The notes: a model not told the origin generated them from the letters alone. A DNA stretch of 64,000 nt from a phage (GCA_025830695.1 GCA_025830695.1_4111.2), one strand, 5' to 3'; positions 14,006-47,465 are shown, numbered from the stretch's first letter. Program-made: numbers and translations.

Positions 14006-14048
14006 AGATTTTATCAAGACGACACATATTAATTTAAGGAATACTAAA

Positions 14049-14372: not shown

Positions 14373-14377
14373 TTAGC

Positions 14378-14414
14378 TTTACTTTATGCAGATACTTTGA
14401 TATAGTGTCTGCAT
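14378..14414 (+). promoter_or_regulatory. promoter overlapped by operator-like palindrome
   Basis: TTTACT 14378-14383, 17 bp, TATAGT 14401-14406; inverted repeat ATGCAGA (14386-14392) / TCTGCAT (14408-14414) brackets the -10. Confidence 0.45.
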
Positions 14415-14452
14415 AGGGGAAAGAAATTAAATCAACTTAAGAGGAAAGTAAA

Positions 14453-14722: not shown

Positions 14723-14773
14723 TCAAATCATCGTTAGTGGTCGATTTAGGCCGCTTATATTGGGGATTATACC

Positions 14774-14944
14774 ATGAACGTTAATCAAGTACTGAATGAG
14801 ATCGAAAGCATCATTAAACCGATGAAGCGTATTGATGCTGTTCCTACACCGGAAGAATGCCGCCTTTATGAGCGTTACAGTGTGGAACAAGCCCAGGAAA
14901 TGGCCCGTATCCGTCCGGTTGCCAGTACTGATAAGGCGGCGTAA
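14774..14944 (+). CDS. hypothetical small protein (56 aa)
   Basis: read by eye: MNVNQVLNEIESIIKPMKRIDAVPTPEECRLYERYSVEQAQEMARIRPVASTDKAA; preferred over overlapping Arg-rich track frame. Confidence 0.45.
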   Translation: MNVNQVLNEIESIIKPMKRIDAVPTPEECRLYERYSVEQAQEMARIRPVASTDKAA

Positions 14945-14945
14945 T

Positions 14946-15155
14946 ATGCTTACTGTACAGGATAAGATCGACATCTTAAAGGTTAATATGTATGTGATTG
15001 ATGCCGTACCTGGTAAAGTATTTGCATACGATGACACCACTGTAAGCAATTTCTACTATAGCCAGGACGTGGGGGATCTTTCTGTACAGTCGGTTATTGA
15101 AAATGTAGTTAATGCAGCGTATGAGCATTTACTTTCAAATAGTACTTGCAATTAG
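14946..15155 (+). CDS. hypothetical small protein (69 aa)
   Basis: TAATATG stop/start junction; MLTVQDKIDILK... Confidence 0.5.
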   Translation: MLTVQDKIDILKVNMYVIDAVPGKVFAYDDTTVSNFYYSQDVGDLSVQSVIENVVNAAYEHLLSNSTCN

Positions 15156-15206
15156 TTTTCAGTACTGTATAATGTTTTACATGAAGGGGAGAAATAGTAC
15201 TCCCCA
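15146..15206 (+). promoter_or_regulatory. early promoter + 5-prime hairpin cassette
   Basis: TTGCAA 15146-15151, TGTATAAT 15166-15173, hairpin GGGGAG...CTCCCC. Confidence 0.7.
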
Positions 15207-15224
15207 CTAATTAAGGAATATGAA

Positions 15225-15371
15225 ATGAAAGCATCAAAAAAGAGTAATACTAAGAAAGCATGTTCACCTTTCGCTGGGGTATTCCCTTTACGTTTCGTTG
15301 ATGAAGTGGTTTCCTACCCGCCGGGCCTTACTCCTGAGATGGTAGAAAGTTTGCGTAAATCTAAAAAATAA
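15225..15371 (+). CDS. hypothetical small protein (48 aa)
   Basis: read by eye after cassette; SD AAGGA; MKASKKSNTKKACSPFAG... Confidence 0.45.
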   Translation: MKASKKSNTKKACSPFAGVFPLRFVDEVVSYPPGLTPEMVESLRKSKK

Positions 15372-15374
15372 TAC

Positions 15375-15434
15375 TTGCAATTAGTTTTCAGTACTGTATA
15401 ATGTTTTACATCAAGGGGAGAAATGATTCTCCCC
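15375..15434 (+). promoter_or_regulatory. early promoter + 5-prime hairpin cassette
   Basis: TTGCAA 15375-15380, TATAAT 15397-15402, hairpin GGGGAGAAATGATTCTCCCC. Confidence 0.7.
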
Positions 15435-15452
15435 ACTATCAGGAGAAACAAA

Positions 15453-15605
15453 ATGAAACAATATAATGCTCGGTTTGATGTTACTATCGGTAACGGCAAA
15501 GGTCAATTTTCTTTCAGTACTCGACGCAGTTATACAGAAAACTTCCTGCGTAATTGTGCACTGACCGCCGCACAAATTAAACATTACTTTCAGGCTAAAA
15601 AATGA
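15453..15605 (+). CDS. hypothetical small protein (50 aa)
   Basis: start moved to ATG 15453; SD AGGAGA. Confidence 0.5.
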   Translation: MKQYNARFDVTIGNGKGQFSFSTRRSYTENFLRNCALTAAQIKHYFQAKK

Positions 15606-15691
15606 AATCATTGGCTTATTACAGTTCGGCCCTGGTCGGTGCATTGATCGCGGCATTGTTAGTAACCTATCTATTCTTTATGGTGATTTAA
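15602..15691 (+). CDS. possible small hydrophobic peptide (29 aa)
   Basis: ATGA overlap; MKSLAYYSSALVGALIAALLVTYLFFMVI (single TM-like). Confidence 0.3.
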   Translation: MKSLAYYSSALVGALIAALLVTYLFFMVI

Positions 15692-15826
15692 ATGAATCCT
15701 AACGGTATAATTTACAGTACTCCTAAAACGAAAGCAGACAAGGTAAACGCTAAAAAAGCGAAAGTAAAGGAGTACATCAAACAAGGAATGACACGAAAGG
15801 CCGCAGTACTTAAAGCTAAAAAATAA
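15692..15826 (+). CDS. possible small basic protein (44 aa)
   Basis: read by eye; Lys-rich. Confidence 0.3.
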   Translation: MNPNGIIYSTPKTKADKVNAKKAKVKEYIKQGMTRKAAVLKAKK

Positions 15827-15836
15827 ATGAAAAAAG

Positions 15837-15923
15837 TGGTTGACTTCGGTCAGCCATTTTGCTATTATATATTCATTGAGAGATAGCTCACTAGCCCACA
15901 GGGTGCAGGAGTGTATCTATTGT
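15837..15923 (+). repeat. element R copy 1 (terminator-like hairpin + promoter + conserved leader)
   Basis: GTGGTTGACTTCGGTCAGCC...TTTGCTATTATAT...AGCCCACAGGGTGCAGGAGTGTATCT. Confidence 0.6.
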
Positions 15924-15972
15924 ATAATGTTTGAGTACTGAAAACTATTTTAAAGTATTTGATAAAAAGTAC

Positions 15973-16028
15973 TTGCAAACTATCTCAATAGGCGTATAAT
16001 GTTTTACATCGAAAGGGGAAACGGTTTC
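15973..16028 (+). promoter_or_regulatory. early promoter + 5-prime hairpin cassette
   Basis: TTGCAA 15973-15978, TATAAT 15995-16000, hairpin GGAAACGGTTTCC. Confidence 0.65.
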
Positions 16029-16051
16029 CTCTGGTAATAAGGAAACGAATC

Positions 16052-16393
16052 ATGACTATCTCAATTGCTCAATCTAACTTTGAAAACGAAATCATCGCTC
16101 AGGCACTGCGTTTAAATGATGGTCGGGCCGAAATCAATTACGGTTTCAATTCAGGCGGTTGTGAAAAATATCAGTACTTTGTAACGGCTGATGGCTGTGT
16201 CCTGGGCATCAATACAGTTATTGTAAACATTCAGAAAATTAATTTCAATGATCCAGACGATAGCCAGTTTTACATTGTAGGCGTAGACGTGAACTATGAG
16301 GATGACTCACTAACTGATGATCACACTGGCGAGCGGTTAGAAAGTGCATACGGTGAAGATGATTATCAGTCCGGTCCAGAAGATTTCGAATAA
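16052..16393 (+). CDS. hypothetical acidic protein (113 aa)
   Basis: ORF track; SD AAGGAAA. Confidence 0.65.
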   Translation: MTISIAQSNFENEIIAQALRLNDGRAEINYGFNSGGCEKYQYFVTADGCVLGINTVIVNIQKINFNDPDDSQFYIVGVDVNYEDDSLTDDHTGERLESAYGEDDYQSGPEDFE

Positions 16394-16407
16394 TATTAAA
16401 AAATAGT

Positions 16408-16466
16408 TTGACAATAGATTATAGTACTGTATAATGTTTTACATGAAGGGGAGAATAGTTCTCCCC
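16408..16466 (+). promoter_or_regulatory. early promoter + 5-prime hairpin cassette
   Basis: TTGACA 16408-16413, TGTATAAT 16428-16435, hairpin GGGGAGAATAGTTCTCCCC. Confidence 0.7.
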
Positions 16467-16486
16467 ACTAACAGAGAGAAAACAAA

Positions 16487-16699
16487 ATGGCTAATATCCG
16501 GTCGAAATTAAAAAATGCAAAACAAGTTTTATTTTCAGATCATGAATACTTTAATAAAGATATTACAGGAGTTACAAGTATCAAGGAGGTAAAAGAAAAA
16601 ACCGGAGTTTTGTGTGATGTGCGATTAGTTGGAACATTTGGGAATAACGTGCTATATCGCTGTGGTGATTACAATTTTACACTGACTATTATTAACTAA
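16487..16699 (+). CDS. hypothetical protein (70 aa)
   Basis: ORF track. Confidence 0.65.
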   Translation: MANIRSKLKNAKQVLFSDHEYFNKDITGVTSIKEVKEKTGVLCDVRLVGTFGNNVLYRCGDYNFTLTIIN

Positions 16700-16728
16700 A
16701 AAATATTATCACAGTACTATCAAAGCTA

Positions 16729-16757
16729 TTGACACTGATTGATAGTACTGGCATAAT
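16729..16757 (+). promoter_or_regulatory. promoter (TTGACA...GGCATAAT class)
   Basis: TTGACA 16729-16734, 17 bp, CATAAT 16752-16757. Confidence 0.6.
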
Positions 16758-16792
16758 AACTTTTATCAACTACACTACTAAGGAATTAAAAA

Positions 16793-16972
16793 ATGGCTAT
16801 CATCGCAAAAACTGAAATCGTTGGTCTGGATTCTATCATCATGACGTTTGAAGATCAAAAAGGTATGTATGTAGTTTCCTATGGTGATTATGTTCGGGAG
16901 TATGAAACGGTAGACGAAGCCTTTGAAAGCTATATTCGCCAGGTGAATAAAGCATACGACGACTACCGCTAA
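16793..16972 (+). CDS. hypothetical small protein (59 aa)
   Basis: read by eye; SD AAGGAA; MAIIAKTEIVGLDS... Confidence 0.5.
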   Translation: MAIIAKTEIVGLDSIIMTFEDQKGMYVVSYGDYVREYETVDEAFESYIRQVNKAYDDYR

Positions 16973-16999
16973 AATATATTACCAGTACTATTAAAGATA

Positions 17000-17027
17000 T
17001 TGACAACGTTTGATAGTACTGTATAAT
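17000..17027 (+). promoter_or_regulatory. promoter
   Basis: TTGACA 17000-17005, TGTATAAT 17020-17027. Confidence 0.6.
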
Positions 17028-17071
17028 AAGTTTTATAAACAGTAGTTAACTTAACCTAAGAGAGAAATAAA

Positions 17072-17215
17072 ATGATCGCACTGGATTCATTCATCGACGC
17101 AGTACTGGCAAAAACTGGCGAGGATCTGACCGCAGAACAATACGCAATGATCGAACAATGCCAGCAAGACGGTAAATCGGTGAAAGATACTGTTAAGATT
17201 ATCCGCAAGATGTAA
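17072..17215 (+). CDS. hypothetical small protein (47 aa)
   Basis: read by eye; SD AGAGA; MIALDSFIDAVLAKTGEDL... Confidence 0.45.
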   Translation: MIALDSFIDAVLAKTGEDLTAEQYAMIEQCQQDGKSVKDTVKIIRKM

Positions 17216-24906: not shown

Positions 24907-24914
24907 GCTGGTGG
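24907..24914 (+). other. Chi octamer GCTGGTGG just downstream of element R copy 4
   Basis: exact octamer. Confidence 0.5.
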
Positions 24915-24938
24915 AGTGAAAACTATTAATAAAAAGTA

Positions 24939-24967
24939 TTGACAAAGTATATCAGTACTGCAATAAT
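24939..24967 (+). promoter_or_regulatory. promoter
   Basis: TTGACA 24939-24944, AGTACTGCAATAAT -10 region. Confidence 0.5.
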
Positions 24968-25020
24968 GTATCTCGTAGGGCGGCAATGGTGCGACGGTCC
25001 ACAAAGTTAGGAGATTCAAA

Positions 25021-25353
25021 ATGAGTACTTCAATCGCTATCGTTAAAGCTTTCATCCGTACCAATGTTTCATCTGTATTCATCGACGGTCTGGATCGGGA
25101 AGTAGAATACTCAATCATTATCGCACAGACTGCAAACGGTGCTCGGTATATCCTTAATGATAGTGAAGCAAATCACTACTACTTCACTAAAGCTACTGGC
25201 TTTAAACGCATCGATGCTGACGTAGTATACGCTAAGATGAATAAGCTGGTAGACAAGATTAACGCGAAAGGTACTATCGATTTACAGTACTGGACCGAAA
25301 CCGATCCAGAATATGGTTCTCACCGCTATCTGAATCCAGGTATTAAAATGTAA
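25021..25353 (+). CDS. hypothetical protein (110 aa)
   Basis: ORF track; SD AGGAGA. Confidence 0.65.
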   Translation: MSTSIAIVKAFIRTNVSSVFIDGLDREVEYSIIIAQTANGARYILNDSEANHYYFTKATGFKRIDADVVYAKMNKLVDKINAKGTIDLQYWTETDPEYGSHRYLNPGIKM

Positions 25354-25360
25354 AAAGTAC

Positions 25361-25422
25361 TTGCATAGTACTTAGAATCAAGTATAATGTTTTACATAGA
25401 GAGGGGGAAATGGTTCTCCCTC
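25361..25422 (+). promoter_or_regulatory. early promoter + 5-prime hairpin cassette
   Basis: TTGCAT 25361-25366, TATAAT 25383-25388, hairpin GAGGGGGAAATGGTTCTCCCTC. Confidence 0.7.
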
Positions 25423-25442
25423 CTAAATTAAGGAGTTTTATC

Positions 25443-25844
25443 ATGACCTTCTCAATCAATTCCTTCGCTGACGTTTTAGTACTGGCTCGGACTTTTGGTA
25501 AAGATGCACTGGAGTACGCTGTAAGTAATGGTACTATCCAACCGGAACAGTGCCGCATCATTGGAAACTGCAAACGTTGGGCGGTATCCAATACTATTGC
25601 ACTGGAAAACTTCCACGATGGCAACAATGAATATTCTGTTGATGTAGTATTCGAAGCCGTTGATCTCGGCGGTATCTATAATACTAACCTGAATGATGTG
25701 CGTATCGTTCGCACGGGGTTCGGTGCGTATGATGTATCTATTCGTGAAGCTATGAACACCGGATACATTAGCAAGGACTTACTTGCTCACATCATGCAGC
25801 TGTGTACGGAACGTAACGAAGCACGCACTATCTTAGGACTGTAA
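25443..25844 (+). CDS. hypothetical protein (133 aa)
   Basis: start moved to ATG 25443 (MTFSINSF); SD AAGGAG. Confidence 0.65.
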   Translation: MTFSINSFADVLVLARTFGKDALEYAVSNGTIQPEQCRIIGNCKRWAVSNTIALENFHDGNNEYSVDVVFEAVDLGGIYNTNLNDVRIVRTGFGAYDVSIREAMNTGYISKDLLAHIMQLCTERNEARTILGL

Positions 25845-25912
25845 GCGTTACACATCACCAAACATCATAGGCCGCCTTGTAGCGGCCTTAACTATATCAG
25901 GAGGGCATACAT

Positions 25913-26122
25913 ATGTTCTATACAGTATACAGCGTTCTAGGTACTATTGCAGGCGTACATGATAACGTCAATGATGCTATGCGTACAGTACTGCAACAGG
26001 TTCCACTAAAGCCTAAGACCATTAAGCAGATGACAGCACGACTAACCAGGGCGACCGATGGCGTGGAAGTATGGCAGGACTACGGGGATACACAGATAAT
26101 CGTTAGCGTAACGAAGGATTAA
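25913..26122 (+). CDS. hypothetical protein (69 aa)
   Basis: ORF track; SD CAGGAGGG; preceded by GC hairpin GGCCGC-CTTGTA-GCGGCC. Confidence 0.6.
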   Translation: MFYTVYSVLGTIAGVHDNVNDAMRTVLQQVPLKPKTIKQMTARLTRATDGVEVWQDYGDTQIIVSVTKD

Positions 26123-26340
26123 TGCGTAAAGGGATCTAGTACTGATTCAGAAAAAAGTCAAGGCGTTTTTAAAATTATGCGTTAAAAAAATGCATAGGTA
26201 ATCCCTTGACTTTTTTGAAATAAAAGGGATTGGACTATGGCAAAATGCGTAGGGGGCTAAAGGGCGGGTAACCTTAGCGACTTCGATAAAGGGGTATTAC
26301 GAATAAAATGTTATTGACTTTTTATATGAATCGTATAAAA
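26123..26340. promoter_or_regulatory. non-coding control region upstream of family B array (inverted repeats, AATGCGT repeats, weak promoter TTGACT 26314-26319)
   Basis: inverted repeat AAAAAAGTCAAGG (26151-26163) / CCTTGACTTTTTT (26204-26216); AATGCGT at 26121, 26177, 26244. Confidence 0.45.
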
Positions 26341-26371
26341 TATGATTGATATTAATTTTAAGGGAGTCCCT

Positions 26372-26569
26372 ATGCGTATTTTAACTAAAGAACAGCACCA
26401 CGAAAGACTTATCAATAACATGGCTATGATAATGTATAAGTCCCATGACCGTGGTATTGCCTATAAGCGTGAATTAATTATGGCACTATTCATTGGAACT
26501 AACTTTCAGGAAAGGTATGTCAACGATTGGATTTGGTATTTAATTGAAGATATAACGAGTAAACTATGA
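26372..26569 (+). CDS. family B small paralog (LGTNYQE motif family)
   Basis: track ORF trimmed to ATG 26372 (MRILTKEQ) with SD AAGGGAG; motif FIGTNFQERYV. Confidence 0.6.
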   Translation: MRILTKEQHHERLINNMAMIMYKSHDRGIAYKRELIMALFIGTNFQERYVNDWIWYLIEDITSKL

Positions 26570-26766
26570 AAATGCGTATTTTAAATAAAGAAGAATATCA
26601 ATCACTGTTACGTAAAAACTACGTAAAGATTTACAACACAGACACACACGTAGAACGAATGGAGTTATACCTTTTGATTACATTGGGAACAAACTATCAG
26701 GGTAGATGGGTGTGGCAATATATGGATACATTGAAAAATAAAATATTGTCCACGAGGAAACAATGA
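26566..26766 (+). CDS. family B small paralog
   Basis: ATGA-coupled; LGTNYQGRWV. Confidence 0.6.
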   Translation: MKMRILNKEEYQSLLRKNYVKIYNTDTHVERMELYLLITLGTNYQGRWVWQYMDTLKNKILSTRKQ

Positions 26767-26972
26767 AAACTATAACACGAACCCAATCATACGGTCTTAT
26801 CTTGAAATACATGGACTTAATGGTGGATATCAGCAAAGACCTGCCTAAAACTGAAATTGAAGTTGCAAGAGCAGAGATCCGCATGTTGGCTGTACTGAAC
26901 ACAAACCATCAGGAAGATTATGTTGAAGAATGGATTCGATTTTTAATAGAAGATATTAAGAGTAAAATATGA
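26763..26972 (+). CDS. family B small paralog
   Basis: ATGA-coupled; LNTNHQEDYV. Confidence 0.6.
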   Translation: MKTITRTQSYGLILKYMDLMVDISKDLPKTEIEVARAEIRMLAVLNTNHQEDYVEEWIRFLIEDIKSKI

Positions 26973-27184
26973 TTATTATAGAAAACTCATATCAATATAC
27001 TGAACGCATCGCTGCCAGACAACTTGAAATCCTCATAATATACGAAGAGACGTCTGATTTAAACTTAGCCGAGGTATTGGAAAATGAAATACTTTTGGGT
27101 GCATTCTTGGGAACAGACTATCAGGAGTATTATGAGGAAAAGTATTTGTCATCTCTTGAGAAATACATCAGGAGCAAATTATGA
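26969..27184 (+). CDS. family B small paralog
   Basis: LGTDYQEYYE. Confidence 0.6.
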   Translation: MIIIENSYQYTERIAARQLEILIIYEETSDLNLAEVLENEILLGAFLGTDYQEYYEEKYLSSLEKYIRSKL

Positions 27185-27393
27185 TTATATTAACACCTGA
27201 AGAATATAAGAAACGTTTTAATTCTGTCCAGACTGAAATATTACTTATATACCTTTCAAATGCAGACCTTAACTTATCAAGGGCAATGGAGAAGGATTTA
27301 CTTATGGGTGCATTTTTGGATACAGACTTTCAGGAGTATTATGTAGGGAAATACTTAATTGAACTTCAGAACTACATTAAGAGTAAACTATGA
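27181..27393 (+). CDS. family B small paralog
   Basis: LDTDFQEYYV; near-duplicate of 26969 gene. Confidence 0.6.
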   Translation: MIILTPEEYKKRFNSVQTEILLIYLSNADLNLSRAMEKDLLMGAFLDTDFQEYYVGKYLIELQNYIKSKL

Positions 27394-27617
27394 AACATTT
27401 AAGTAATATTGAGAAGATGAGAATTATCATTGATGCATTAAACAAATACGATACCCTTTTACAAATAAAAGGTTTAACTCGATTGGAACACAAGATAAAC
27501 ACCACCGATGTACGCATGTTGGCTGTACTGGGGACGAACTTCCAGGAAGAGTATGTTATTGCACACATAGTTGCACTCAAGAATTACATTATGGACAAAT
27601 GTAATGAACATCATTAA
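27390..27617 (+). CDS. family B small paralog
   Basis: LGTNFQEEYV. Confidence 0.6.
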   Translation: MKHLSNIEKMRIIIDALNKYDTLLQIKGLTRLEHKINTTDVRMLAVLGTNFQEEYVIAHIVALKNYIMDKCNEHH

Positions 27618-27828
27618 TAACTTTGAATACGAGGCCCGTGCTAAGAGTGCCAGAAAAAAAGAGAACACCATTTACTTCACTATGATGTACTTACAATGGA
27701 CTGAAATTGAAGAAAAGGTTGCTGAAGTATGGATGTTGGAATTCATGGGGACGCAGTATCAGAATAGGTTTGCGGGTGAGTATATCGATGTTCTTATGAA
27801 ACAAATAGAAAGAAAGGAAAAGAACTAA
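27604..27828 (+). CDS. family B small paralog
   Basis: track ORF trimmed to MNIINNFEYEA; MGTQYQNRF. Confidence 0.55.
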   Translation: MNIINNFEYEARAKSARKKENTIYFTMMYLQWTEIEEKVAEVWMLEFMGTQYQNRFAGEYIDVLMKQIERKEKN

Positions 27829-27986
27829 TGGTTTTCATTAACATATCTGACCAACTCGATACTAAACTAGAAGTCGAGCAGAGTGAGGGATGGATGCTGT
27901 ACTTTCTTGGAACTTCTCATCAAAATTTTTATATCCATGAACACATAGTTGCACTCACAAATCTAATAAGGGATAAATGTAAATGA
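27828..27986 (+). CDS. family B small paralog (52 aa)
   Basis: read by eye; TAATG junction; LGTSHQNFY. Confidence 0.5.
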   Translation: MVFINISDQLDTKLEVEQSEGWMLYFLGTSHQNFYIHEHIVALTNLIRDKCK

Positions 27987-28240
27987 AACACTTGACGGAC
28001 GATGAATATTCACTTAGAATTCGAAAGCTCACCCCAGAAGCAAGAGTAATCTACGATGACGATGCACTTTCATGGAACGAGATGAAAGTTAAAGTTCATG
28101 AGCTATGGTTGCTGTACTTTGTGGGAACCCAATATCAAGAGAAATATTGTACCGATTATCTTGAACAACTAATGGATCTTATACAGATAAAACTAAATGA
28201 ACGAATTGTGGAAAAATATGAAAACTTTATCAAGCACTGA
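27983..28240 (+). CDS. family B paralog with C-terminal extension (lost stop)
   Basis: VGTQYQEKY; usual ...KL-stop junction mutated so ORF reads 14 codons further. Confidence 0.55.
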   Translation: MKHLTDDEYSLRIRKLTPEARVIYDDDALSWNEMKVKVHELWLLYFVGTQYQEKYCTDYLEQLMDLIQIKLNERIVEKYENFIKH

Positions 28241-28469
28241 GTATCAGACTGCCCTCTTCTCTCTTCTAAACACCCTTCGCACTAACAATAAACTTTATAA
28301 TTCCCGTGAAGCTGATATCGTCAACGCTGATGTATATCTTAATAAATTCATAGGGACTAACTATCAAGAACTGTTCACTCTACGATATATCTCTGCATTG
28401 AGAAACGAAATATCAGATAAAACCCGCCAAGCCAGAAGAGAATGGAAGAAACAATGCGACAAAGACTAA
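28218..28469 (+). CDS. family B small paralog
   Basis: track ORF trimmed to MKTLSSTEYQ; IGTNYQELF. Confidence 0.5.
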   Translation: MKTLSSTEYQTALFSLLNTLRTNNKLYNSREADIVNADVYLNKFIGTNYQELFTLRYISALRNEISDKTRQARREWKKQCDKD

Positions 28470-28702
28470 ATCACAAAATGTATTGTAAACTATTGCAGAC
28501 ACTGGCACAGAAACACTATGACACGGTATCTGAAATATTACCCTATGATATCATGCGTTTACTTCACTGTGAGGCCGAGATGCTTGTACTGATGACAGGC
28601 ACTGATAAAACAGCAATCGCCAGATCGATAGAGCAATATATTGATGCACACTGCCAACACATGAGAACCGAAATCTGGAGGAAAGAGAATGATAATCCTT
28701 AA
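28442..28702 (+). CDS. family B-like paralog (divergent; start uncertain, 28442 or 28454)
   Basis: ORF track; MTGTDKTAI in motif position. Confidence 0.45.
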   Translation: MEETMRQRLNHKMYCKLLQTLAQKHYDTVSEILPYDIMRLLHCEAEMLVLMTGTDKTAIARSIEQYIDAHCQHMRTEIWRKENDNP

Positions 28703-28904
28703 TGAGTATCAGTATCATTGGAGGTTACAAACTATCAAATCAAAAGTGTATAGTATTGTGTTAAACAAATCTATTGCACAAGAGGACAAATGTGTTATAA
28801 TAGCTGAAATGAAGTTGGGTGTATTCGTAGGGACAAACTATCAAAACATCTACACTGACGTATTATTAAGTTCCTTACGTAACAAGGTGGTATCCAAAAT
28901 ATGA
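28689..28904 (+). CDS. family B small paralog
   Basis: VGTNYQNIY. Confidence 0.6.
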   Translation: MIILNEYQYHWRLQTIKSKVYSIVLNKSIAQEDKCVIIAEMKLGVFVGTNYQNIYTDVLLSSLRNKVVSKI

Positions 28905-29119
28905 GAAATTTACAAGGCTTTGAATACATCAGACTCCTGAAAACATGTGGAAGCAGAAGGAGAATGATATCAAGCGATAAGAGCATCCAAGCTAACCTTA
29001 AGCACGCACTAGTAACTGAACTCTATGTAGGTGCACTCTTAGGCACAAACTATCAACAAATGTATGTAGATCTATGGATTGACGCTCTACAGAAAGAGGT
29101 TAAAAGTAAATGCAAATGA
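28901..29119 (+). CDS. family B small paralog
   Basis: LGTNYQQMY. Confidence 0.6.
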   Translation: MRNLQGFEYIRLLKTCGSRRRMISSDKSIQANLKHALVTELYVGALLGTNYQQMYVDLWIDALQKEVKSKCK

Positions 29120-29328
29120 TTAATTTAAGTAAAGACGAATTTTATGTTCTACTGGCGAAAACTTATCCAGCACGGAAGGCCGTTTATGATAGTCACATTA
29201 TTGAACCCTCAAAGAAGTTGATTTTAGTAAATGAGATTAAGATGCTTTCAGTCTTAGGAACAAACTATCAAGAGAATGCTGTACTGATGTTAATTGATGC
29301 CCTCCAGAGAGAGATACAAAGTAAATGA
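29110..29328 (+). CDS. family B small paralog
   Basis: LGTNYQENA. Confidence 0.6.
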   Translation: MQMINLSKDEFYVLLAKTYPARKAVYDSHIIEPSKKLILVNEIKMLSVLGTNYQENAVLMLIDALQREIQSK

Positions 29329-29549
29329 TTAATTTAACTTACCATGAATATCAAAAACGTTTAAATGCATCCAGAGATATAAGGATTCAAATATTCAATA
29401 ACAAAAGATTGAAGCCTGATATCAGAAAAATCAAAATTATAGAAGCAGAGTTATGCAACTTTCTAGGGACCAACTATCAGGCAGGTAAGGTAAAAAACTA
29501 TCTTAGAGAACTAATGAATAGTATTGAAAATAAATGTAAGGGTAATTAA
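29325..29549 (+). CDS. family B small paralog
   Basis: LGTNYQAGK. Confidence 0.6.
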   Translation: MINLTYHEYQKRLNASRDIRIQIFNNKRLKPDIRKIKIIEAELCNFLGTNYQAGKVKNYLRELMNSIENKCKGN

Positions 29550-29550
29550 C

Positions 29551-29790
29551 ATGAAAATGATTAAATTATCTCAAGCAAAATATAAAGAACGCCTGGTAAA
29601 AATTGCACCTGGACTTAATGAAATCCATCACGGAGAAGTCATTAAACACGGAAATAAGATGATTATGAAACTTGAGTTAAAGGTGGGTGCATTCATAGGA
29701 ACAAACTATCAGGAGTATTATGTAGATGAATACATAATCGCACTTAAGAGATATATTGGAAGAAAACTATATCTACAAACTAAAGAATAG
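29551..29790 (+). CDS. family B small paralog
   Basis: track ORF trimmed to MKMIKLSQ; IGTNYQEYY. Confidence 0.55.
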   Translation: MKMIKLSQAKYKERLVKIAPGLNEIHHGEVIKHGNKMIMKLELKVGAFIGTNYQEYYVDEYIIALKRYIGRKLYLQTKE

Positions 29791-29819
29791 TATTGAAAAT
29801 AAATGTGAGGTTGATGAAC

Positions 29820-30083
29820 ATGCAAATGATCAATTTAAGTAAAGATGAATATACCGAGCGTATGACAAAAATTACGCACAAACGTAATACAATCTATCAC
29901 AACCCAGAAATTCAACACAGTAAGAAAATGATTATGATGCGTGAGTTAAAGATGGGTGTATTCTTAGGAACAAACTATCAAGATACAGAAGTAAATCGCT
30001 TAATCGCGGAGTTACTACTGGAAATCAGAGGTAAGCTGTACTTTTATCAAATGACCCAACCACTGAGGTGTACTAAGAAATGA
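29820..30083 (+). CDS. family B small paralog
   Basis: track ORF trimmed to MQMINLSKDEY; LGTNYQDTE; upstream junction duplicates preceding junction. Confidence 0.55.
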   Translation: MQMINLSKDEYTERMTKITHKRNTIYHNPEIQHSKKMIMMRELKMGVFLGTNYQDTEVNRLIAELLLEIRGKLYFYQMTQPLRCTKK

Positions 30084-30295
30084 ACAACATCACATTGCAA
30101 GAAAGATTCATCCGAATCAACTATGCAATTACCAAATTAGATGCTACTATAGGATTCCAAAGTCTACCATACAAAACCAGATTGTTATTAGAGTGTGAAG
30201 CTAAGTTGGGTGTACTGTTAGGGACGCAACACCAACAACGATATGTGGAAATCTGGATTGACCTTTTAACCCAAAATATATATGAGAGAATGTAA
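30080..30295 (+). CDS. family B small paralog
   Basis: LGTQHQQRY. Confidence 0.6.
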   Translation: MNNITLQERFIRINYAITKLDATIGFQSLPYKTRLLLECEAKLGVLLGTQHQQRYVEIWIDLLTQNIYERM

Positions 30296-30526
30296 ATGCA
30301 AAATGAAATGATATACTTAACGAATGAAGAATTTCAAGAGAAGATGTTAAAAACCAAAAACATTACTCTTAAGTTCGTTCCAAATCAATCAATATCTGAA
30401 GTATCTGCAAATGTATTGTTTCAGAAGCTACCATACGTTCTTGGAACTGATAAACAAGAATTTATGGTTCAAAATATGATTGAACATCTTATAATGAGTA
30501 TTAAGGAAAAAGTAAATGCAAAATGA
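30296..30526 (+). CDS. family B paralog (subtype with LPYxLGTD[KR]QE)
   Basis: MQNEMIYLTNEEF; near-duplicate N-terminus with next gene. Confidence 0.6.
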   Translation: MQNEMIYLTNEEFQEKMLKTKNITLKFVPNQSISEVSANVLFQKLPYVLGTDKQEFMVQNMIEHLIMSIKEKVNAK

Positions 30527-30770
30527 AATGATATACTTAACCTATAATGAATACGTCGAGAGATTAGTTCGTGCCAAGAGATATACCAATAAACGTCCAA
30601 TTGACCTAAACCAAACCCCAGCAGAAAGGAGTGCAGAAGTATTATTCCAATCACTACCATATCTTCTGGGAACTGATAGACAAGAGGAATATGTTGCACG
30701 TATGATTAGATATCTTAAAATCACTATTAAGGAAAAAGTAAATGAAAATGAAATACTTAACAGACGATGA
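30516..30770 (+). CDS. family B paralog (subtype LPYLLGTDRQE)
   Basis: MQNEMIYLTYNEY...PAERSAEVLF. Confidence 0.6.
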   Translation: MQNEMIYLTYNEYVERLVRAKRYTNKRPIDLNQTPAERSAEVLFQSLPYLLGTDRQEEYVARMIRYLKITIKEKVNENEILNRR

Positions 30771-30993
30771 GTTAAAAGAACGACTAATTAAATCAAGAAA
30801 ACATACAAATCAACTTCCAAACGACACAAACAAGTCTCCAGCGGAAAGGAGTGCAGAAGTTTTATACATTCAACTCATGTACTTTCTTGGCACTGACAGA
30901 CAAGAGTATTACATTGAAAGTATGCTTCGATATCTTAAATTCTCTATAAAGGAAAAGATACATGATCAAGTATTTAAAAATCCTAACAGCTAA
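30742..30993 (+). CDS. family B paralog (same subtype)
   Basis: PAERSAEVLYIQLMYFLGTDRQEYY. Confidence 0.6.
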   Translation: MKMKYLTDDELKERLIKSRKHTNQLPNDTNKSPAERSAEVLYIQLMYFLGTDRQEYYIESMLRYLKFSIKEKIHDQVFKNPNS

Positions 30994-31204
30994 TGAATAT
31001 CATAAGATTGTAATGAAGACTAATAGTGCTTACGCTAAAAAATCAAACCCCAAGTACATACTGGAACACACATTCGAAGAACGACAACTAGCTTTAGTTG
31101 AAGCAAAACTTCTTGCACTCTTAGGAACAAACTATCAAGAAGAATACATCAGAAAACTAATATACCTTTTAACTAAACATATAAGAAAAAGAAAAAATGC
31201 ATGA
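30962..31204 (+). CDS. family B small paralog
   Basis: LGTNYQEEY. Confidence 0.6.
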   Translation: MIKYLKILTANEYHKIVMKTNSAYAKKSNPKYILEHTFEERQLALVEAKLLALLGTNYQEEYIRKLIYLLTKHIRKRKNA

Positions 31205-31431
31205 AACACTTGACAGATGATGAACATGGGCTTATAGTAATGGATGTAATCAACATCGAATACAAAAAGTTGATACGCTATCGTTGTTATGAAGATAAGC
31301 AACTCGTTCTAGCAGAACAGAAGTTGTTTCGACTCTTAAACACAAACTACCAAGCACAATACGAAGAATCGTATATGTACCTTTTGGCGAGGAAAGCAAA
31401 AAGAGATTATGAAAATTTTAAGCAAAGGTGA
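31201..31431 (+). CDS. family B small paralog
   Basis: LNTNYQAQY. Confidence 0.6.
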   Translation: MKHLTDDEHGLIVMDVINIEYKKLIRYRCYEDKQLVLAEQKLFRLLNTNYQAQYEESYMYLLARKAKRDYENFKQR

Positions 31432-31630
31432 TTCAGTAATATTACTTATAGAGAGTTCAAGTAAATTCTTAAACATAACACTGTCTGATATAGATGAAGA
31501 TGACAAAGAAGTACTGAGAGCAGATTTAAGAGTACTGTTACATATCGGAACAAACCTACAAGAAGAATATGTAGAGTGCTACATCAATGAACTTAAAGAA
31601 TCAGTACTGAGAAAATGCAAATGCAAATGA
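31409..31630 (+). CDS. family B small paralog
   Basis: IGTNLQEEY. Confidence 0.55.
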   Translation: MKILSKGDSVILLIESSSKFLNITLSDIDEDDKEVLRADLRVLLHIGTNLQEEYVECYINELKESVLRKCKCK

Positions 31631-31848
31631 AAATCATTACCGATGTAGAATACCTAACAATCATAAATGGACTGTTTTTGAAGCTCTTCGTCATTAACAC
31701 ATCAGATATACCAGATATGGATAAAATTATTAAGAGAAATGAAGTCTATGTTCTAGCTACCCTTGGAACGAACTATCAAGAACACGACATTAAAGATTAT
31801 ATTAATACACTTAAACGAGCTATTGAACTAAAATGCCAAAACCACTAG
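31615..31848 (+). CDS. family B small paralog
   Basis: LGTNYQEHD. Confidence 0.55.
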   Translation: MQMQMKIITDVEYLTIINGLFLKLFVINTSDIPDMDKIIKRNEVYVLATLGTNYQEHDIKDYINTLKRAIELKCQNH

Positions 31849-32048
31849 GAACAGCAGAATACATTGAACTCATGGGATTACACTTCTCATCCTTTCAGAA
31901 ACTTATGCGAGAATCAAAGAATGATTTAGAATATACCATCAGAGGTTCCGATTTAAGAATGCTTCTCACCCTAGACACAGATTCCCAAGAGCGATTTGTC
32001 AATGAGCATATTAGAGCACTTTTAATGGAAATTAAAAGTAAACTATGA
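31833..32048 (+). CDS. family B small paralog
   Basis: LDTDSQERF. Confidence 0.55.
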   Translation: MPKPLGTAEYIELMGLHFSSFQKLMRESKNDLEYTIRGSDLRMLLTLDTDSQERFVNEHIRALLMEIKSKL

Positions 32049-32260
32049 AGATAATATCAAACCAAGAGTACTTGGCACTATTCAGGAAGAATAATCACAA
32101 ATATATGGCACTTGATTCAAGAACTGATATAAGTGAACTTGAAAAAAATCTTTTGCGTTCAGATATGATAGTACTGACACTCTTAGGAACACAGCATCAA
32201 GAGAGAACTGTTAATTCACACATAGGTATTCTTATACAGATTGTACAGGAAAAGATATGA
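32045..32260 (+). CDS. family B small paralog
   Basis: LGTQHQERT. Confidence 0.6.
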   Translation: MKIISNQEYLALFRKNNHKYMALDSRTDISELEKNLLRSDMIVLTLLGTQHQERTVNSHIGILIQIVQEKI

Positions 32261-32478
32261 GAATCATAACACAACAAGATATTCTTAAGTTCACAAGGGT
32301 TCATGCATCTGAATTTGATGCTATATTATCAAAAAGTTACAATGACCCTTATACACAAGATGTACATTACAGTGAATTATGGATGTATATACTTTTAGGT
32401 ACAAATAAGCAAGAGCAAGCCGTACAGAAGTATTTGACAGCTTTACGTGATGCTACTGCTAATGGAGTATGTGTTTAA
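32257..32478 (+). CDS. family B small paralog
   Basis: LGTNKQEQA. Confidence 0.6.
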   Translation: MRIITQQDILKFTRVHASEFDAILSKSYNDPYTQDVHYSELWMYILLGTNKQEQAVQKYLTALRDATANGVCV

Positions 32479-32479
32479 T

Positions 32480-32722
32480 ATGAAAGTACTGACAGAACTA
32501 GAAATGTATCATAGATTTAATAAGTACTATCATTTACTTAAGCCTATACAGAGGATTAAATGTCCATTTGAAGAGAAACAGGTTTTAATCTATGAGCACA
32601 AGTTCTTTGTATCATTAGGTACAGATCAACAAGAGTACTATTTGACGTTGTACTTGATTACATTAATAGATTTAATTCACTATAAAACCAAACAAGCTAA
32701 TAAAGAGAAATATGAAAACTAA
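32480..32722 (+). CDS. family B small paralog (last of main array)
   Basis: track ORF trimmed to MKVLTELEMY; LGTDQQEYY. Confidence 0.55.
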   Translation: MKVLTELEMYHRFNKYYHLLKPIQRIKCPFEEKQVLIYEHKFFVSLGTDQQEYYLTLYLITLIDLIHYKTKQANKEKYEN

Positions 32723-33056
32723 TATACAACTCAAGGTATATAAATCATTTGAACATACATATATCAAAAGTAGTCTATGTAGAGATGTAATGGATTACAA
32801 GGGTAAACCATTCACAATTACCTATGATTCTTATGTTAGTGATTTATATATATCATTTGTTAATTACGAAAATAAAATATACAAGCACGTTGATATTAAA
32901 GATTTAAGTACTTTATCACCAGAGGAATACTTTCAGGAATCATTAGTATGGGATTTAGAGTTTCCTATGCCATTAGTACATAAGATGATAGTACTAATGA
33001 AAGAATCTAAACAGGAGCCTAATGGTGATTATGAAGAACACATCGTTGAGTATTAA
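32712..33056 (+). CDS. family C paralog (E-E-x-Y/F-F-Q-x-S-L/T-V-x-D motif family)
   Basis: LSTLSPEEYFQESLVWD. Confidence 0.6.
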   Translation: MKTNIQLKVYKSFEHTYIKSSLCRDVMDYKGKPFTITYDSYVSDLYISFVNYENKIYKHVDIKDLSTLSPEEYFQESLVWDLEFPMPLVHKMIVLMKESKQEPNGDYEEHIVEY

Positions 33057-33426: not shown

Positions 33427-33427
33427 C

Positions 33428-33731: not shown

Positions 33732-34048
33732 AATTTAATATAGCAAAAACATCGAGTATATGTATTTTTGGTTATGCTGATGAGTTAGGTGATATTGACA
33801 TTCTTTTGTACAAAAAGGATGGTGTTATGCATTTCAAGTACCAGGATGAAGAGGCAGACAATTATCCTTTACCTAATTTAGTACAAATGCAGGAAGATGA
33901 ATTATTCCAGTACAGCTTAGTATACGACATTGATATTTGCACGATGCCAGTACTAATTAGTATTCAAAAAGTGATGCTCGATATGTATGATAAGCTAATA
34001 CAAGGTACATCAGGGAGAATCATTGAAATCGATATACAAGACAATTAA
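33722..34048 (+). CDS. family C paralog
   Basis: MQEDELFQYSLVYD. Confidence 0.6.
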   Translation: MEMKFNIAKTSSICIFGYADELGDIDILLYKKDGVMHFKYQDEEADNYPLPNLVQMQEDELFQYSLVYDIDICTMPVLISIQKVMLDMYDKLIQGTSGRIIEIDIQDN

Positions 34049-34241
34049 TCAAGAATGGAAGACCCAAAAGTACAGGGAATTCAACAGGAATTTTACAAAA
34101 GATGCATTGAATTTAAAAACAACAGAGTTTGATATGTTTATTTTTCTTGGAACACGTTCACAAGAACAATTTGTTCATTATTATATAAATTCGTTGCGAA
34201 CGGAGATAGTATGCAAAACACAGGGTATTATAAAAAGGTAA
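34023..34241 (+). CDS. family B paralog interleaved in family C array
   Basis: FLGTRSQEQFV. Confidence 0.55.
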   Translation: MKSIYKTINQEWKTQKYREFNRNFTKDALNLKTTEFDMFIFLGTRSQEQFVHYYINSLRTEIVCKTQGIIKR

Positions 34242-34477
34242 ACCAATATTTGTACGCTACAAAGTACAGGGATTTTTGTTTAAAGGGTGGTGATGAAGAT
34301 TTTTCTTTGCGATTATCAGAATTTAATCTGTTATTTTATCTTGGTACAAAAGAACAAGAAGAAATGGCACAGAAATTTATCAAGCACCTTTTACAAAAAA
34401 TTAATATGCAAATTTTGATGCTTAAGTTACAGAATGAGATAAATGAATATGAATCCAGAAATAGTTCAGGATCTTAA
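34211..34477 (+). CDS. family B paralog interleaved in family C array
   Basis: YLGTKEQEEMA. Confidence 0.55.
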   Translation: MQNTGYYKKVNQYLYATKYRDFCLKGGDEDFSLRLSEFNLLFYLGTKEQEEMAQKFIKHLLQKINMQILMLKLQNEINEYESRNSSGS

Positions 34478-46567: not shown

Positions 46568-47100
46568 TGAAAGTTAACATCAATGACTTTGATGCATTAC
46601 AAGATTTATCAAAAAAGATTCGCACCATTGTACCAGTACTCAAAAAATGCAGTACTGGTTTAATCGATCCTAGTACTGTTGTTAATGAGAAGTACAATTT
46701 TCATTATGTATTACAGGGTACTGGGGCATTCCAGAAGTGTGAGGTGCGTGAGACACACGTAATTGATACATCATTGTTTTCTATTGGTGCACCTGTGTCG
46801 AATAATACTATTTTCCTAGACAACGCTGGAAATATTCAACAATTAACATTTAAGAAAAGGAAAAAGAACAATAACATTGGTGTGTATGCGATGAAGTGGG
46901 GTCAACCTGATTTGAAGCGTGAAATTCACATCCCTAAGTACAATTACAATGCATTTGACGAACAGTGTTTTCAACTATCGTGTACTGACCCTGACTATGC
47001 TATCATTCAGTTCTATATGGAATTGCAGATTGCATTTAACAGTAATTTGTATATTAACTTATTGGCGATGAACATCGATGAAGTATTCAAAAACATTTAA
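46564..47100 (+). CDS. family C-like paralog (degenerate motif)
   Basis: FDEQCFQLSCTD. Confidence 0.5.
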   Translation: MMKVNINDFDALQDLSKKIRTIVPVLKKCSTGLIDPSTVVNEKYNFHYVLQGTGAFQKCEVRETHVIDTSLFSIGAPVSNNTIFLDNAGNIQQLTFKKRKKNNNIGVYAMKWGQPDLKREIHIPKYNYNAFDEQCFQLSCTDPDYAIIQFYMELQIAFNSNLYINLLAMNIDEVFKNI

Positions 47101-47296
47101 TCGAATTGAATACATGAGAACTGTGAGTGCAGTGTGGGACATATGGTTCACTACTAAACCAAAAATGGATTACCATGACTTTAAGCTCTTGTTCTTCGTT
47201 GGCTCTAACAAACAGGATGTTGCAATGAAGGGTTATATTCAGCACTTACAGGAACTAATCCAGAAGAGAATATATGAAAATAATAGACCAAAATGA
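47078..47296 (+). CDS. family B paralog interleaved in family C array
   Basis: FVGSNKQDVAM. Confidence 0.5.
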   Translation: MKYSKTFNRIEYMRTVSAVWDIWFTTKPKMDYHDFKLLFFVGSNKQDVAMKGYIQHLQELIQKRIYENNRPK

Positions 47297-47465
47297 TATT
47301 GCTAAACTATTCAATATATATTCTACTAGAATGATGCAAACAGACTCATATAGTACTGAATTCAAAGAGTTGAAAGTCCTGATGTACTTGGGAACCCAAT
47401 ATCAGGAACAAGTTATTTTGGAATATATTAATTCGCTGAAGAAGGATATCCGTTATGTACGATGA
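47274..47465 (+). CDS. family B paralog interleaved in family C array
   Basis: YLGTQYQEQVI. Confidence 0.55.
   Translation: MKIIDQNDIAKLFNIYSTRMMQTDSYSTEFKELKVLMYLGTQYQEQVILEYINSLKKDIRYVR

Follow-up and report, generated by a model that had tools for sequence, protein, structure and literature searches.

Tandem, co-oriented paralogues adjoining terminal repeats are known from eukaryotic viruses: the MGF110, MGF360 and MGF505 families of African swine fever virus and the terminal families, or "gene accordions", of poxviruses encode diverged non-structural proteins in isolate-variable copy number, with roles in host range and immune evasion. Among phages, T5 has its pre-early genes within the left terminal repeat and SPO1 its host-takeover module within the terminal redundancy; the genes of both blocks are unrelated to one another, present once each and under separate promoters. 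Anti-defence and anti-CRISPR clusters in early regions encode small, fast-evolving, often all-helical orphans that bind and block host proteins; normally these are unrelated to one another and accompanied by a helix-turn-helix (HTH) regulator. About 80% of jumbo-phage genes are without known function. Tandem gene arrays are in print for phages 121Q and G (PMC5646251) and phAPEC6 (PMC7247149), that of 121Q being mentioned in one sentence by Hua et al. 2017 (PMC5646251).

The array described here belongs to an Asteriusvirus jumbo coliphage (GCA_025830695.1) and lies in a 64,000-nucleotide stretch of DNA (the window) that is 99.5% identical to phages G17 and Sharanji, in which the family genes are all labelled "hypothetical". 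Between 26372 and 32722 are 29 consecutive paralogous ORFs of 52 to 90 aa, all on the plus strand (Table 1). A sequence-only reading of the window had proposed an array of this size, and ORF calls, full-length alignment, profile scanning and BLASTP clustering bear it out. The 29 products align over their full length with a mean column identity of 28% (mean pairwise identity 25%), an invariant T and near-invariant Q and L. In a six-frame scan of the window with a profile made from these 29, each member scores an E value of 1e-17 to 1e-27, and BLASTP clustering of all window ORFs returns the same 29 genes as the largest paralogue family; the match signal is far beyond chance. With 29 adjacent co-oriented paralogues, where three or more were looked for, the locus qualifies as a viral tandem multigene family. 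Its products are small, soluble and non-membrane. Four further members, missed by the earlier reading, lie outside the array, two at 34.0-34.5 kb and two at 47.1-47.5 kb. The first start had been placed correctly: the ATG further upstream, at 26342, lacks conservation, being TGG in fEgEco12, and position 26341 is the last of a promoter-like -10 element. Two motif details need trimming: the supposedly usual C-terminal I-x-S-K-L occurs in its strict form in only about 6-8 members, judged by eye in the alignment, the general form being I-x-x-K; and PAERSAEVL, described as shared by the subcluster at 30296-30993, is present in two of its three members, the third reading SISEVSANVL.

Table 1 Array members, outlying members and associated signals in the window
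Feature	Position	Strand	Basis or remark
Inner boundary of direct terminal repeat (DTR)	26274		alignment with right end of fEgEco12 record
Sigma-70-like promoter candidate, TTGACT-16-TAAAAT	26314..26341	+	10/12 match; in 98-nt unique leader
Shine-Dalgarno of member 1, AAGGGAG	26360..26366	+	anti-SD duplex -7.9 kcal/mol
Member 1 (65 aa)	26372..26569	+	ORF call, alignment, profile scan; start refined
Member 2 (66 aa)	26566..26766	+	ORF call, alignment, profile scan
Member 3 (69 aa; LNTNHQ variant)	26763..26972	+	ORF call, alignment, profile scan
Member 4 (71 aa; pI 4.3)	26969..27184	+	ORF call, alignment, profile scan
Member 5 (70 aa; 50% identity to member 4)	27181..27393	+	ORF call, alignment
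Member 6 (75 aa)	27390..27617	+	ORF call, alignment, profile scan
Member 7 (74 aa; ATG start per Sharanji annotation, not upstream TTG)	27604..27828	+	ORF call, alignment
Member 8 (52 aa; N-terminally truncated, without helix 1)	27828..27986	+	ORF call, alignment
Member 9 (85 aa)	27983..28240	+	ORF call, alignment, profile scan
Member 10 (90 aa)	28197..28469	+	ORF call, alignment
Member 11 (82 aa; divergent motif MTGTDKT, 6-residue insertion)	28454..28702	+	alignment
Member 12 (71 aa)	28689..28904	+	ORF call, alignment, profile scan
Member 13 (72 aa; second structure model)	28901..29119	+	ORF call, alignment
Member 14 (72 aa; alternative ATG 29116 gives ATGA junction)	29110..29328	+	ORF call, alignment
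Member 15 (74 aa)	29325..29549	+	ORF call, alignment, profile scan
Member 16 (79 aa; in sole recent DNA-level duplication, 226 nt, 74% identity)	29551..29790	+	alignment
Member 17 (87 aa)	29820..30083	+	alignment, DNA-level duplication
Member 18 (71 aa)	30080..30295	+	ORF call, alignment, profile scan
Member 19 (76 aa; LGTD[KR]QE subcluster; 55% identity to member 20)	30296..30526	+	ORF call, alignment
Member 20 (84 aa; LGTD[KR]QE subcluster)	30516..30770	+	ORF call, alignment
Member 21 (83 aa; LGTD[KR]QE subcluster)	30742..30993	+	ORF call, alignment
Member 22 (80 aa)	30962..31204	+	ORF call, alignment, profile scan
Member 23 (76 aa; unannotated in Sharanji)	31201..31431	+	ORF call, alignment
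Internal promoter-like site, TTGACA-17-TATAGT	31210..31238	+	11/12 match; inside member 23
Member 24 (73 aa)	31409..31630	+	ORF call, alignment, profile scan
Member 25 (77 aa; alternative starts 31621, 31627)	31615..31848	+	ORF call, alignment
Member 26 (71 aa; LDTDSQ variant)	31833..32048	+	ORF call, alignment, profile scan
Member 27 (71 aa)	32045..32260	+	ORF call, alignment, profile scan
Member 28 (73 aa)	32257..32478	+	ORF call, alignment, profile scan
Member 29 (86 aa; ATG start per Sharanji annotation)	32462..32722	+	ORF call, alignment
Outlying member 30 (72 aa; FLGTRSQE)	34023..34241	+	profile E 3e-11, sequence outside profile-building set
Outlying member 31 (88 aa; YLGTKEQE)	34211..34477	+	profile scan
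Outlying member 32 (72 aa; FVGSNKQD)	47078..47296	+	profile scan
Outlying member 33 (63 aa; YLGTQYQE)	47274..47465	+	profile scan

The array adjoins the inner boundary of the DTR, which spans approximately 6769-26274 of the window; its left end maps to 6769, and its inner boundary matches the physical right end of the genome, ...GGGCGGGTAACCT. Member 1 starts 98 bp inboard of the left DTR, and the array is co-oriented with all genes of the repeat. The same order, repeat then array, is common to vB_Ec-M-J (DTR annotated 1-21,525; array start 21,624), fEgEco12 and Klebsiella phage Muenster, in which the first two genes past the PhageTerm repeat (1-20,030) are family members. This position and its conservation in Muenster are new here. 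The repeat itself includes genes for a GNAT acetyltransferase and, by weak similarity, a kinase-like protein, and a further tandem family (family A) lies on its opposite side. The left-end location, the long direct terminal repeats, small genes of unknown fold and the putative host-type promoters and inward transcription are features shared with the T5 and SPO1 blocks. Unlike T5 pre-early genes, however, the array is just outside the left repeat, which ends at 26274 while member 1 starts at 26372, and it consists of one family of 29 apparently coupled paralogues.

The promoter candidate in the leader is kept in six of seven relatives, three of the six with the -10 variant TATTAT, and the site inside member 23 has both hexamers and their spacing identical in all seven; both are consensus matches only. 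Since the array lies directly downstream of a repeat with 17 same-strand sigma-70 matches of at least 11/12, read-through into it is possible, and this together with the leader promoter suggests that the array genes are early or immediate-early. A single weak upstream promoter, as first supposed, captures the conserved leader candidate and is too simple for a locus that also has the 17 promoters of the repeat and an internal site. Overlapping or abutting genes account for 25 of the 28 junctions; ATGA, thought to join nearly all of them, is found at 14, another 11 overlap otherwise by 1-44 nt, and three have gaps of 0, 1 and 29 nt. Shine-Dalgarno-like sequences are enriched, being present at 17 of the 29 starts compared with 15% of random positions, and a scan found no convincing plus-strand terminator inside the array. 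This tight packing makes coupled translation of one long mRNA plausible, in line with the proposed polycistron, but the transcription unit does not end at 32722: the next gene overlaps member 29, and the first spacer is at 33427. The support for translation of the members is evolutionary, and the literature searched yielded neither expression data nor interaction or phenotype data on any member.

We assign a probability of about 0.4 to the reading that the copies are early, non-virion binders that have diversified as a set against host or defence targets. Host RNA polymerase would transcribe the array rightward, starting at the conserved leader promoter and reading through from the consensus promoters of the repeat, and translation would proceed by coupling or re-initiation at overlapping stop and start codons. 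Each copy, with a conserved surface of its own on the shared scaffold, would dock in the cytoplasm on a different host, host-defence or rival-phage protein, which would be blocked or redirected during takeover. The set may have grown by tandem duplication and divergence of a founder already at the repeat boundary, and may have been reshuffled by recombination between related phages. A more far-reaching version appears unlikely to us: that the copies each neutralise a separate target (a host factor, a defence system or a rival phage), that the array, through its conserved place as the first genes inboard of the left repeat, is the earliest unique DNA to be expressed as the remaining genome enters, and that the families on either side mark repeat junctions as preferred expansion sites in Rak2-like jumbo phages. 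In contrast to typical anti-defence clusters, neither an HTH regulator nor a known anti-defence protein was identified at the locus; PADLOC defence profiles gave isolated single-member matches only (E 6e-4 or weaker), and PDB sequence and fold matches included no characterised anti-defence protein.

Comparison of orthologs shows the array genes to be protein-coding and under purifying selection. Pooled dN/dS against six genomes is 0.34-0.37, falling to 0.18 in columns conserved between copies and 0.17 across the motif region. It is 0.46 (bootstrap 0.41-0.52) even in columns that are hypervariable between copies, suggesting that each copy keeps its own surface. At 10-12% DNA divergence, 22-25 orthologs per genome retain intact frames, where random substitution would break 14-16. 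Member 23 is the most conserved (96-100% amino acid identity in six genomes), orthologs of the divergent member 11 are 80-90% identical (dN/dS 0.22-0.29), and the truncated member 8 has no clear ortholog in 121Q, Ecwhy_1 or UE-S1. Started at 28218 instead, member 10 would have the MKTLS N-terminus typical of the family, and this shorter form is annotated in slurp01. An arms race often leaves a signal of positive selection; no region had dN/dS above 1 in pairwise NG86 comparisons, which are blunt for that purpose. These values bear on the proposal, made for the 121Q and G arrays by Hua et al. 2017 (PMC5646251) and repeated for phAPEC6 (PMC7247149), that such genes are the residue of tandem duplications filling a larger capsid (a "ratchet"), with little or no individual function. 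The array dN/dS of 0.35, somewhat above the 0.17-0.32 of flanking genes, and the lack of apparent harm from a copy number that varies between 23 and about 29 would suit genome filler. However, dN/dS well below 1 even where copies differ, frames that survive divergence, maintained Shine-Dalgarno-like sites and overlapping junctions, and a family and position that persist in two phage genera make it improbable.

Two AlphaFold models (pLDDT 93.9 and 97.2; pTM 0.78 and 0.82) predict for each protein a plain three-helix bundle of up-down topology. The h-L-G-T-N-Y-Q-E motif looks like a structural staple and not a catalytic site: its Gly is predicted to make a turn, its invariant Thr to be joined by a beta-bridge to the second residue of the conserved M-x-x-L-T N-terminus (residue 2-Thr49 in the model), and Thr and Gln, judging from the secondary structure, would form the capping box of helix 3. 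Conserved columns recur every 3-4 residues within helices, where one stripe per helix is predicted to be the conserved core, and nearly all other positions differ between copies. Isoelectric points run from 4.3 to 9.9 and net charges from -8 to +9, with GRAVY below 0 for nearly all members. On these sequence comparisons the copies have widely different surfaces, but from phage to phage the surface of any one copy is conserved, a combination that is new here. The L-G-T-x-x-Q segment between two helices superficially resembles the turn of an HTH, the beta residue that precedes the helices at the N-terminus is reminiscent of Arc/MetJ proteins, and 13 of the 33 members are basic (pI above 8.5), so that small nucleic-acid-binding regulators, acting in phage transcription control or in DNA end function or entry at the conserved position by the repeat boundary, have to be considered. 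No HTH profile or fold match was found, nor the N-terminal strand plus two helices, with strand pairing between subunits, of Arc/MetJ/CopG ribbon-helix-helix proteins, and we regard this role as very improbable. Non-virion assembly subunits, in which copies would be homo- or hetero-oligomer parts or dosage (for example, a replication- or assembly-zone scaffold or chaperone-like adaptors) and not fitted to targets, are also very doubtful: coupled translation of neighbours suits equimolar co-assembly, helical bundles often oligomerise and members 22 and 23 occur fused in a metagenome protein, but dosage would favour similar copies, the family averages 25% identity with opposite charges, copy number and composition differ between close relatives, and no gp450-gp499 gene, including family member gp470c, was detected in phAPEC6 virions. 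That 62-protein virion proteome lists nothing between gp347 and gp549, gp470c being the one family member placeable by number; mass spectrometry can miss small proteins, but one of 4.7 kDa was among those detected in the same study.

The array of putative binders shares with the African swine fever virus and poxvirus families its tandem, co-oriented arrangement next to a repeat, variable copy number, and diverged, non-structural products. It differs from those of the eukaryotic viruses in being unrelated in sequence and fold, with much smaller proteins and overlapping genes, and its host role is one that we infer. If the members are target-specific binders, they would offer a panel of small inhibitors, already made, against E. 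coli proteins or defence systems, and a bacterial-virus counterpart of those terminal multigene families; if they are dispensable filler, they would directly support the capsid-ratchet model of genome growth. The array fills 6.3 kb, which is about 2% of a 350-kb genome, and accounts for roughly 5% of the genes; its conserved position in two genera offers a handle on DNA entry order and early expression. Both Sharanji and slurp01 grow on E. coli K-12, which brings an answer within reach.

The family was first taken to be unrecognised. Searches indeed gave no Pfam, NCBIfam or PDB match, and no PADLOC assignment, but 28 of the 29 members match phrog_4148 (function unknown; best E 9.3e-27), and family genes are annotated as hypothetical proteins in more than 30 GenBank records. 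This PHROG, and phrog_28039, represent the same family, and relatives in RaK2 and metagenomes also match phrog_4148; the entry is without function, structure, array organisation or genome position, of which the last three were worked out here. Phage 121Q, of the same genus, has an orthologous array of 23+2 copies, and the tandem duplication reading is common to both accounts. The copies here are not "very similar", as Hua et al. put it, having 25% mean identity, and those authors may therefore have meant another array of the 121Q genome.

Between genomes the main array ranges from 23 to about 29 copies, a variation new here, and several members are without a clear ortholog in a given genome. 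Neighbouring copies are slightly more alike (30.5% identity) than those at a distance of at least 6 (about 24%), as expected of local duplication; the top pairs are 19/20, 20/21, 4/5 and 16/17. The copies are old and not the product of a recent accordion, as only one DNA-level duplication is visible, that of members 16/17. Divergence is mosaic, the pS of adjacent genes varying between 0.0 and 0.6. In RaK2 the family numbers about 12 copies, which are scattered, and the metagenome protein in which members 22 and 23 are naturally fused is P0089.

The ORF listing gives 29 back-to-back plus-strand ORFs from 26342/26372 to 32722, and their products (family B; 52-90 aa once starts were set by the Sharanji annotation and the N-terminus typical of the family) can be aligned end to end. 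In the consensus sequence, M-x-x-L-T-x-x-E-Y ... E ... L-G-T-N-Y-Q-E-x-Y-V-x-x-x-I-x-x-L-x-x-x-I-x-x-K, one Thr is invariant and Gln and Leu are nearly so. When all six frames of the window are scanned with a profile built on the 29, every member is recovered (E 1e-17 to 1e-27), as are four copies lying outside the array, and BLASTP clustering of all window ORFs returns the identical set as the largest paralogue group. With ORFs, full-length alignment, profile and clustering in agreement, the array proposed from sequence alone is upheld at its coordinates. The proposed start of its first gene, 26372, is likewise correct: fEgEco12 has TGG in place of the upstream ATG (26342), and 26341 is the last position of a promoter-like -10 element.

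Gene junctions had been described as nearly all ATGA overlaps, which is true of 14 of the 28; the others are overlaps of 1-44 nt (11) or gaps of 0, 1 and 29 nt. The C-terminal I-x-S-K-L, said to be usual, does occur, but in its strict form in about 6-8 members as judged by eye from the alignment, so its commonness was overstated. SD-like pairing is enriched 5' of the starts (17 of 29 at -4 kcal/mol or better, compared with 15% of random positions). The C-terminal codons AAG AGT AAA CT-ATG-A (AAGGAAAAAG) are conserved and serve also as the ribosome-binding site and start of the next gene, so that the C-terminal "motif", as read straight from the sequence, is partly a nucleotide-level constraint. 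Across the junction of array genes 16 and 17 lies a C-terminal family B fragment in another frame (profile positions 57-73), a scar of the 16/17 duplication that is also present in Sharanji and slurp01.

Coordinates of features in the window outside the main run of family B genes, with the duplication scar and member 23 within it
Feature	Coordinates	Strand	Evidence
RCC1-like ORF (putative)	988-2208	-	406 aa; repeated G-x-N-x-x-G-Q/E-x-G
Family A	2293-6515		about 18 tandem genes of roughly 60 aa; consensus M-x-K-E-F-Y...L-I-x-x-Y
GNAT acetyltransferase gene	18171-18527		Pfam, 37 bits, above cut-off
Protein-kinase-like ORF (213 aa)	21872-22513		weak, sub-threshold
Hairpin	24792-24819		AAAGGGATTGAC
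Near-invariant end of repeat	26123-26274		last 152 nt, up to GGGCGGGTAACCT
Inverted repeat	26200-26231		AATCCCTT-16 nt-AAGGGATT
Scar of 16/17 duplication	29738-29839		profile fragment
Member 23	31201-31431	+	array gene
Outlying family B copy, not in profile build	34023-34241	+	profile match
Outlying family B copy, not in profile build	34211-34477	+	profile match
Outlying family B copy, not in profile build	47078-47296	+	profile match
Outlying family B copy, not in profile build	47274-47465	+	profile match
Run of overlapping genes after family B	32712-64000		long series, 100-200 aa

The sequence-only reading had called the family unrecognised. It is already catalogued, in PHROG 4148 (28 of 29 members) and PHROG 28039 (16 of 29), both of unknown function, but the claim stands for the other resources: the 29 members had only scattered, single, sub-threshold matches in Pfam, NCBIfam and PADLOC, and a PDB sequence search with two profiles (29 and 86 sequences) reached a best E of 0.69. 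A full HMMER search of 1.84 billion representatives yielded no more than 88 clusters with an E-value of 1e-3 or lower. All named relatives belong to Asteriusvirus or Alcyoneusvirus phages or to contigs of about 350 kb in E. coli assemblies, and a few are metagenome-only; two divergent metagenome members had no tblastn match among isolated phages. Rfam and Tandem Repeats Finder scans returned nothing, indicating a periodicity of the proteins and not an RNA or satellite feature. The point made by Hua et al. (PMC5646251) about a tandem array in 121Q was repeated in the phAPEC6 paper (PMC7247149) and a 2026 review; all three leave the family, its structure, position and evolution undefined, and the papers on Sharanji, UE-S1 and fEgEco12 do not discuss the array. 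Family B is a real orphan family, catalogued before and uncharacterised, and belongs among viral tandem multigene families. Public annotations are uneven, with 18 of roughly 28 family B genes called in PBECO4 (KC295538).

In vB_Ec-M-J, direct terminal repeats are annotated at 1-21,525 and the array begins at 21,624. The right physical end of fEgEco12 (...GGGCGGGTAACCT) maps to window position 26274 and its left end to 6769, so the repeat in the window spans 6769-26274 (about 19.5 kb). The array has low coordinates in the Sharanji record, which had suggested a place within the terminal repeat. The mapped boundary ruled this out: going inward from the left repeat, family B is the first block of unique genes and begins 98 nt past the boundary. 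In Klebsiella phage Muenster, of another genus (Alcyoneusvirus), PhageTerm places the repeat at 1-20,030, and the two genes that come next, at 20,246 and 20,524, belong to family B (E 1e-8 and 3e-13). The roughly 12 members in RaK2 form small clusters, and two carry an additional domain of some 50 aa at the C-terminus. The Muenster and RaK2 members indicate that the family and its founding position are older than the divergence of Alcyoneusvirus and Asteriusvirus; the 29-copy expansion has been seen so far only in Asteriusvirus. The conserved location of family B at the terminal-repeat boundary is new here.

The window itself is of a collapsed, concatemer type, with right unique end, repeat and left unique end in order, and a sign change in its GC skew falls near 6000. 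Across genomes the final 152 nt of the repeat hardly vary; they may be a terminase/packaging site or an entry-pause signal; the inverted repeat within them is related to the upstream hairpin. In RaK2 (NC_019526), a 785-bp gap before ORF362 (19216-20000) has direct repeats of about 37-39 nt (…ACAATTTATATCATTCTGTGCACTATTCTGTACTG…) and is likely the terminal-repeat boundary region; it contains an unannotated short family B ORF (19710-19868) homologous to Muenster gene 048.

The 98-nt leader of the array has a candidate sigma-70-like site, TTGACT-16-TAAAAT, conserved in six of seven genomes. The plus strand of the repeat (7134-24967) has 17 sites that match the sigma-70 promoter at 11/12 or better. 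Eleven are perfect (12/12): ten identical TTGACA-16-TATAAT sites and one with 17-nt spacing. Most small repeat genes are preceded by such a match; the 6.3-kb array holds only one. The GNAT acetyltransferase gene and the weak kinase-like ORF also lie in the repeat. With these promoter matches and genes, the repeat would by analogy resemble the early host-takeover regions of T5, T7 and SPO1.

By Nei-Gojobori counts on orthologs from six genomes, pooled family B dN/dS is 0.34-0.37, with 0.17-0.32 in nine flanking non-family genes, and constraint is strongest in the motif region (0.17). Reading frames are intact in 22-25 orthologs per genome despite 10-12% nucleotide divergence, at which random substitution would be expected to introduce a stop codon in 14-16 of them, a count that is intact partly by construction since broken copies would score as "no ortholog". 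Between orthologs, dN/dS is still 0.46 (0.41-0.52) in the 32 columns where copies are hypervariable, so the surface of each copy is conserved in its own right. Diversifying selection was sought by region-wise and column-class dN/dS, and no value exceeded 1. The selection acting on the genes speaks against the idea that they are filler or a ratchet, which we consider unlikely. Member 23 is conserved far above its neighbours (96-100% aa identity, pS 0.02-0.10 in the six genomes), has no annotation in Sharanji and holds a fully conserved TTGACA-17-TATAGT; an internal promoter or other DNA-level element may add constraint here. The many frameshifts throughout the array of CMSTMSU (MH494197, UNVERIFIED) suggest sequencing errors rather than decay.

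By megablast against phage genomes, in which 36 phage records matched, 26300-32800 is 99.5% identical over its full length to vB_EcoM_G17 and Sharanji; some 30 further Asteriusvirus jumbo coliphages (121Q, PBECO4, slurp01, phAPEC6 and others) are 83-98% identical; the genes beneath the matches are "hypothetical protein" in every record. Between copies, pairwise protein identity averages 25% (maximum 55%), adjacent copies being slightly more alike (30.5% vs about 24%). Their isoelectric points span 4.3-9.9, net charge lies between -8 and +9, and nearly all have negative GRAVY. The family is old, and only one DNA-level duplication is still visible (members 16/17, 226 nt, 74% identity). 121Q has 23 copies in the main array and other genomes 26 to about 29, and synonymous divergence jumps from 0.0 to 0.6 between adjacent orthologs, implying recombination between lineages. 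The divergence between copies and the variable content make it quite improbable that the proteins are subunits of an assembly. In P0089, a 154-aa protein on a metagenome contig, loss of the member 22 stop codon has naturally joined members 22 and 23 in frame; in a MAFFT alignment almost all homologs fell on one half of it, and the other half had none aligned.

AlphaFold2 modelled member 1 with the paralogue alignment at pLDDT 93.9 (pTM 0.78). For member 13, from an alignment of 55 sequences whose N-termini were correct, it reached pLDDT 97.2 (pTM 0.82). The member 13 model has helices at residues 6-25 (kinked), 31-45 and 52-71, with residue 2 beta-bridged to Thr49 of L-G-T. Conserved columns recur every 3-4 residues inside each helix, which is a buried-stripe signature. 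Secondary-structure strings and the conservation pattern point to a structural role for L-G-T-N-Y-Q-E, in which Gly would make the turn, Thr would bridge to the N-terminus and cap helix 3, and Gln would complete the capping box. In Foldseek searches of viral models the sole matches were Asteriusvirus proteins of no assigned function. Nucleic-acid-binding regulators are a quite unlikely identity for these proteins, given the predicted fold and the charges.

Our preferred reading, at a probability of roughly 0.4, is that family B encodes early, cytoplasmic, non-virion binders that share a three-helix scaffold, each copy of which would dock its own target in the host, host defences or rival phages. 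This reading draws on the early-type context, the copy-specific surfaces conserved between phages and the phAPEC6 virion proteome, which contains no gp450-gp499 gene, gp470c being the sole family B member placeable by number. Functions other than binding and the three alternatives take the remaining probability. A search of the literature for Asteriusvirus transcriptomes or infected-cell proteomes, and with them for expression data on family B, yielded nothing.

Family A stops some 250 bp short of the repeat's outer edge, so that tandem families lie on both sides of the repeat; a relationship between families A and B was rejected (hhalign probability 3.6%). The genes that follow family B include at least two paralogue families by BLASTP (12 and 8 members). 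Many have E-E-x-F-Q-x-S-L near the C-terminus, PHROG 13866 (function unknown) matches two, and the run may be the 121Q array of "more than 30 similar genes". Near the arrays, the 406-aa ORF alone among long genes is on the minus strand, and by eye its motifs may resemble RCC1-type repeats.
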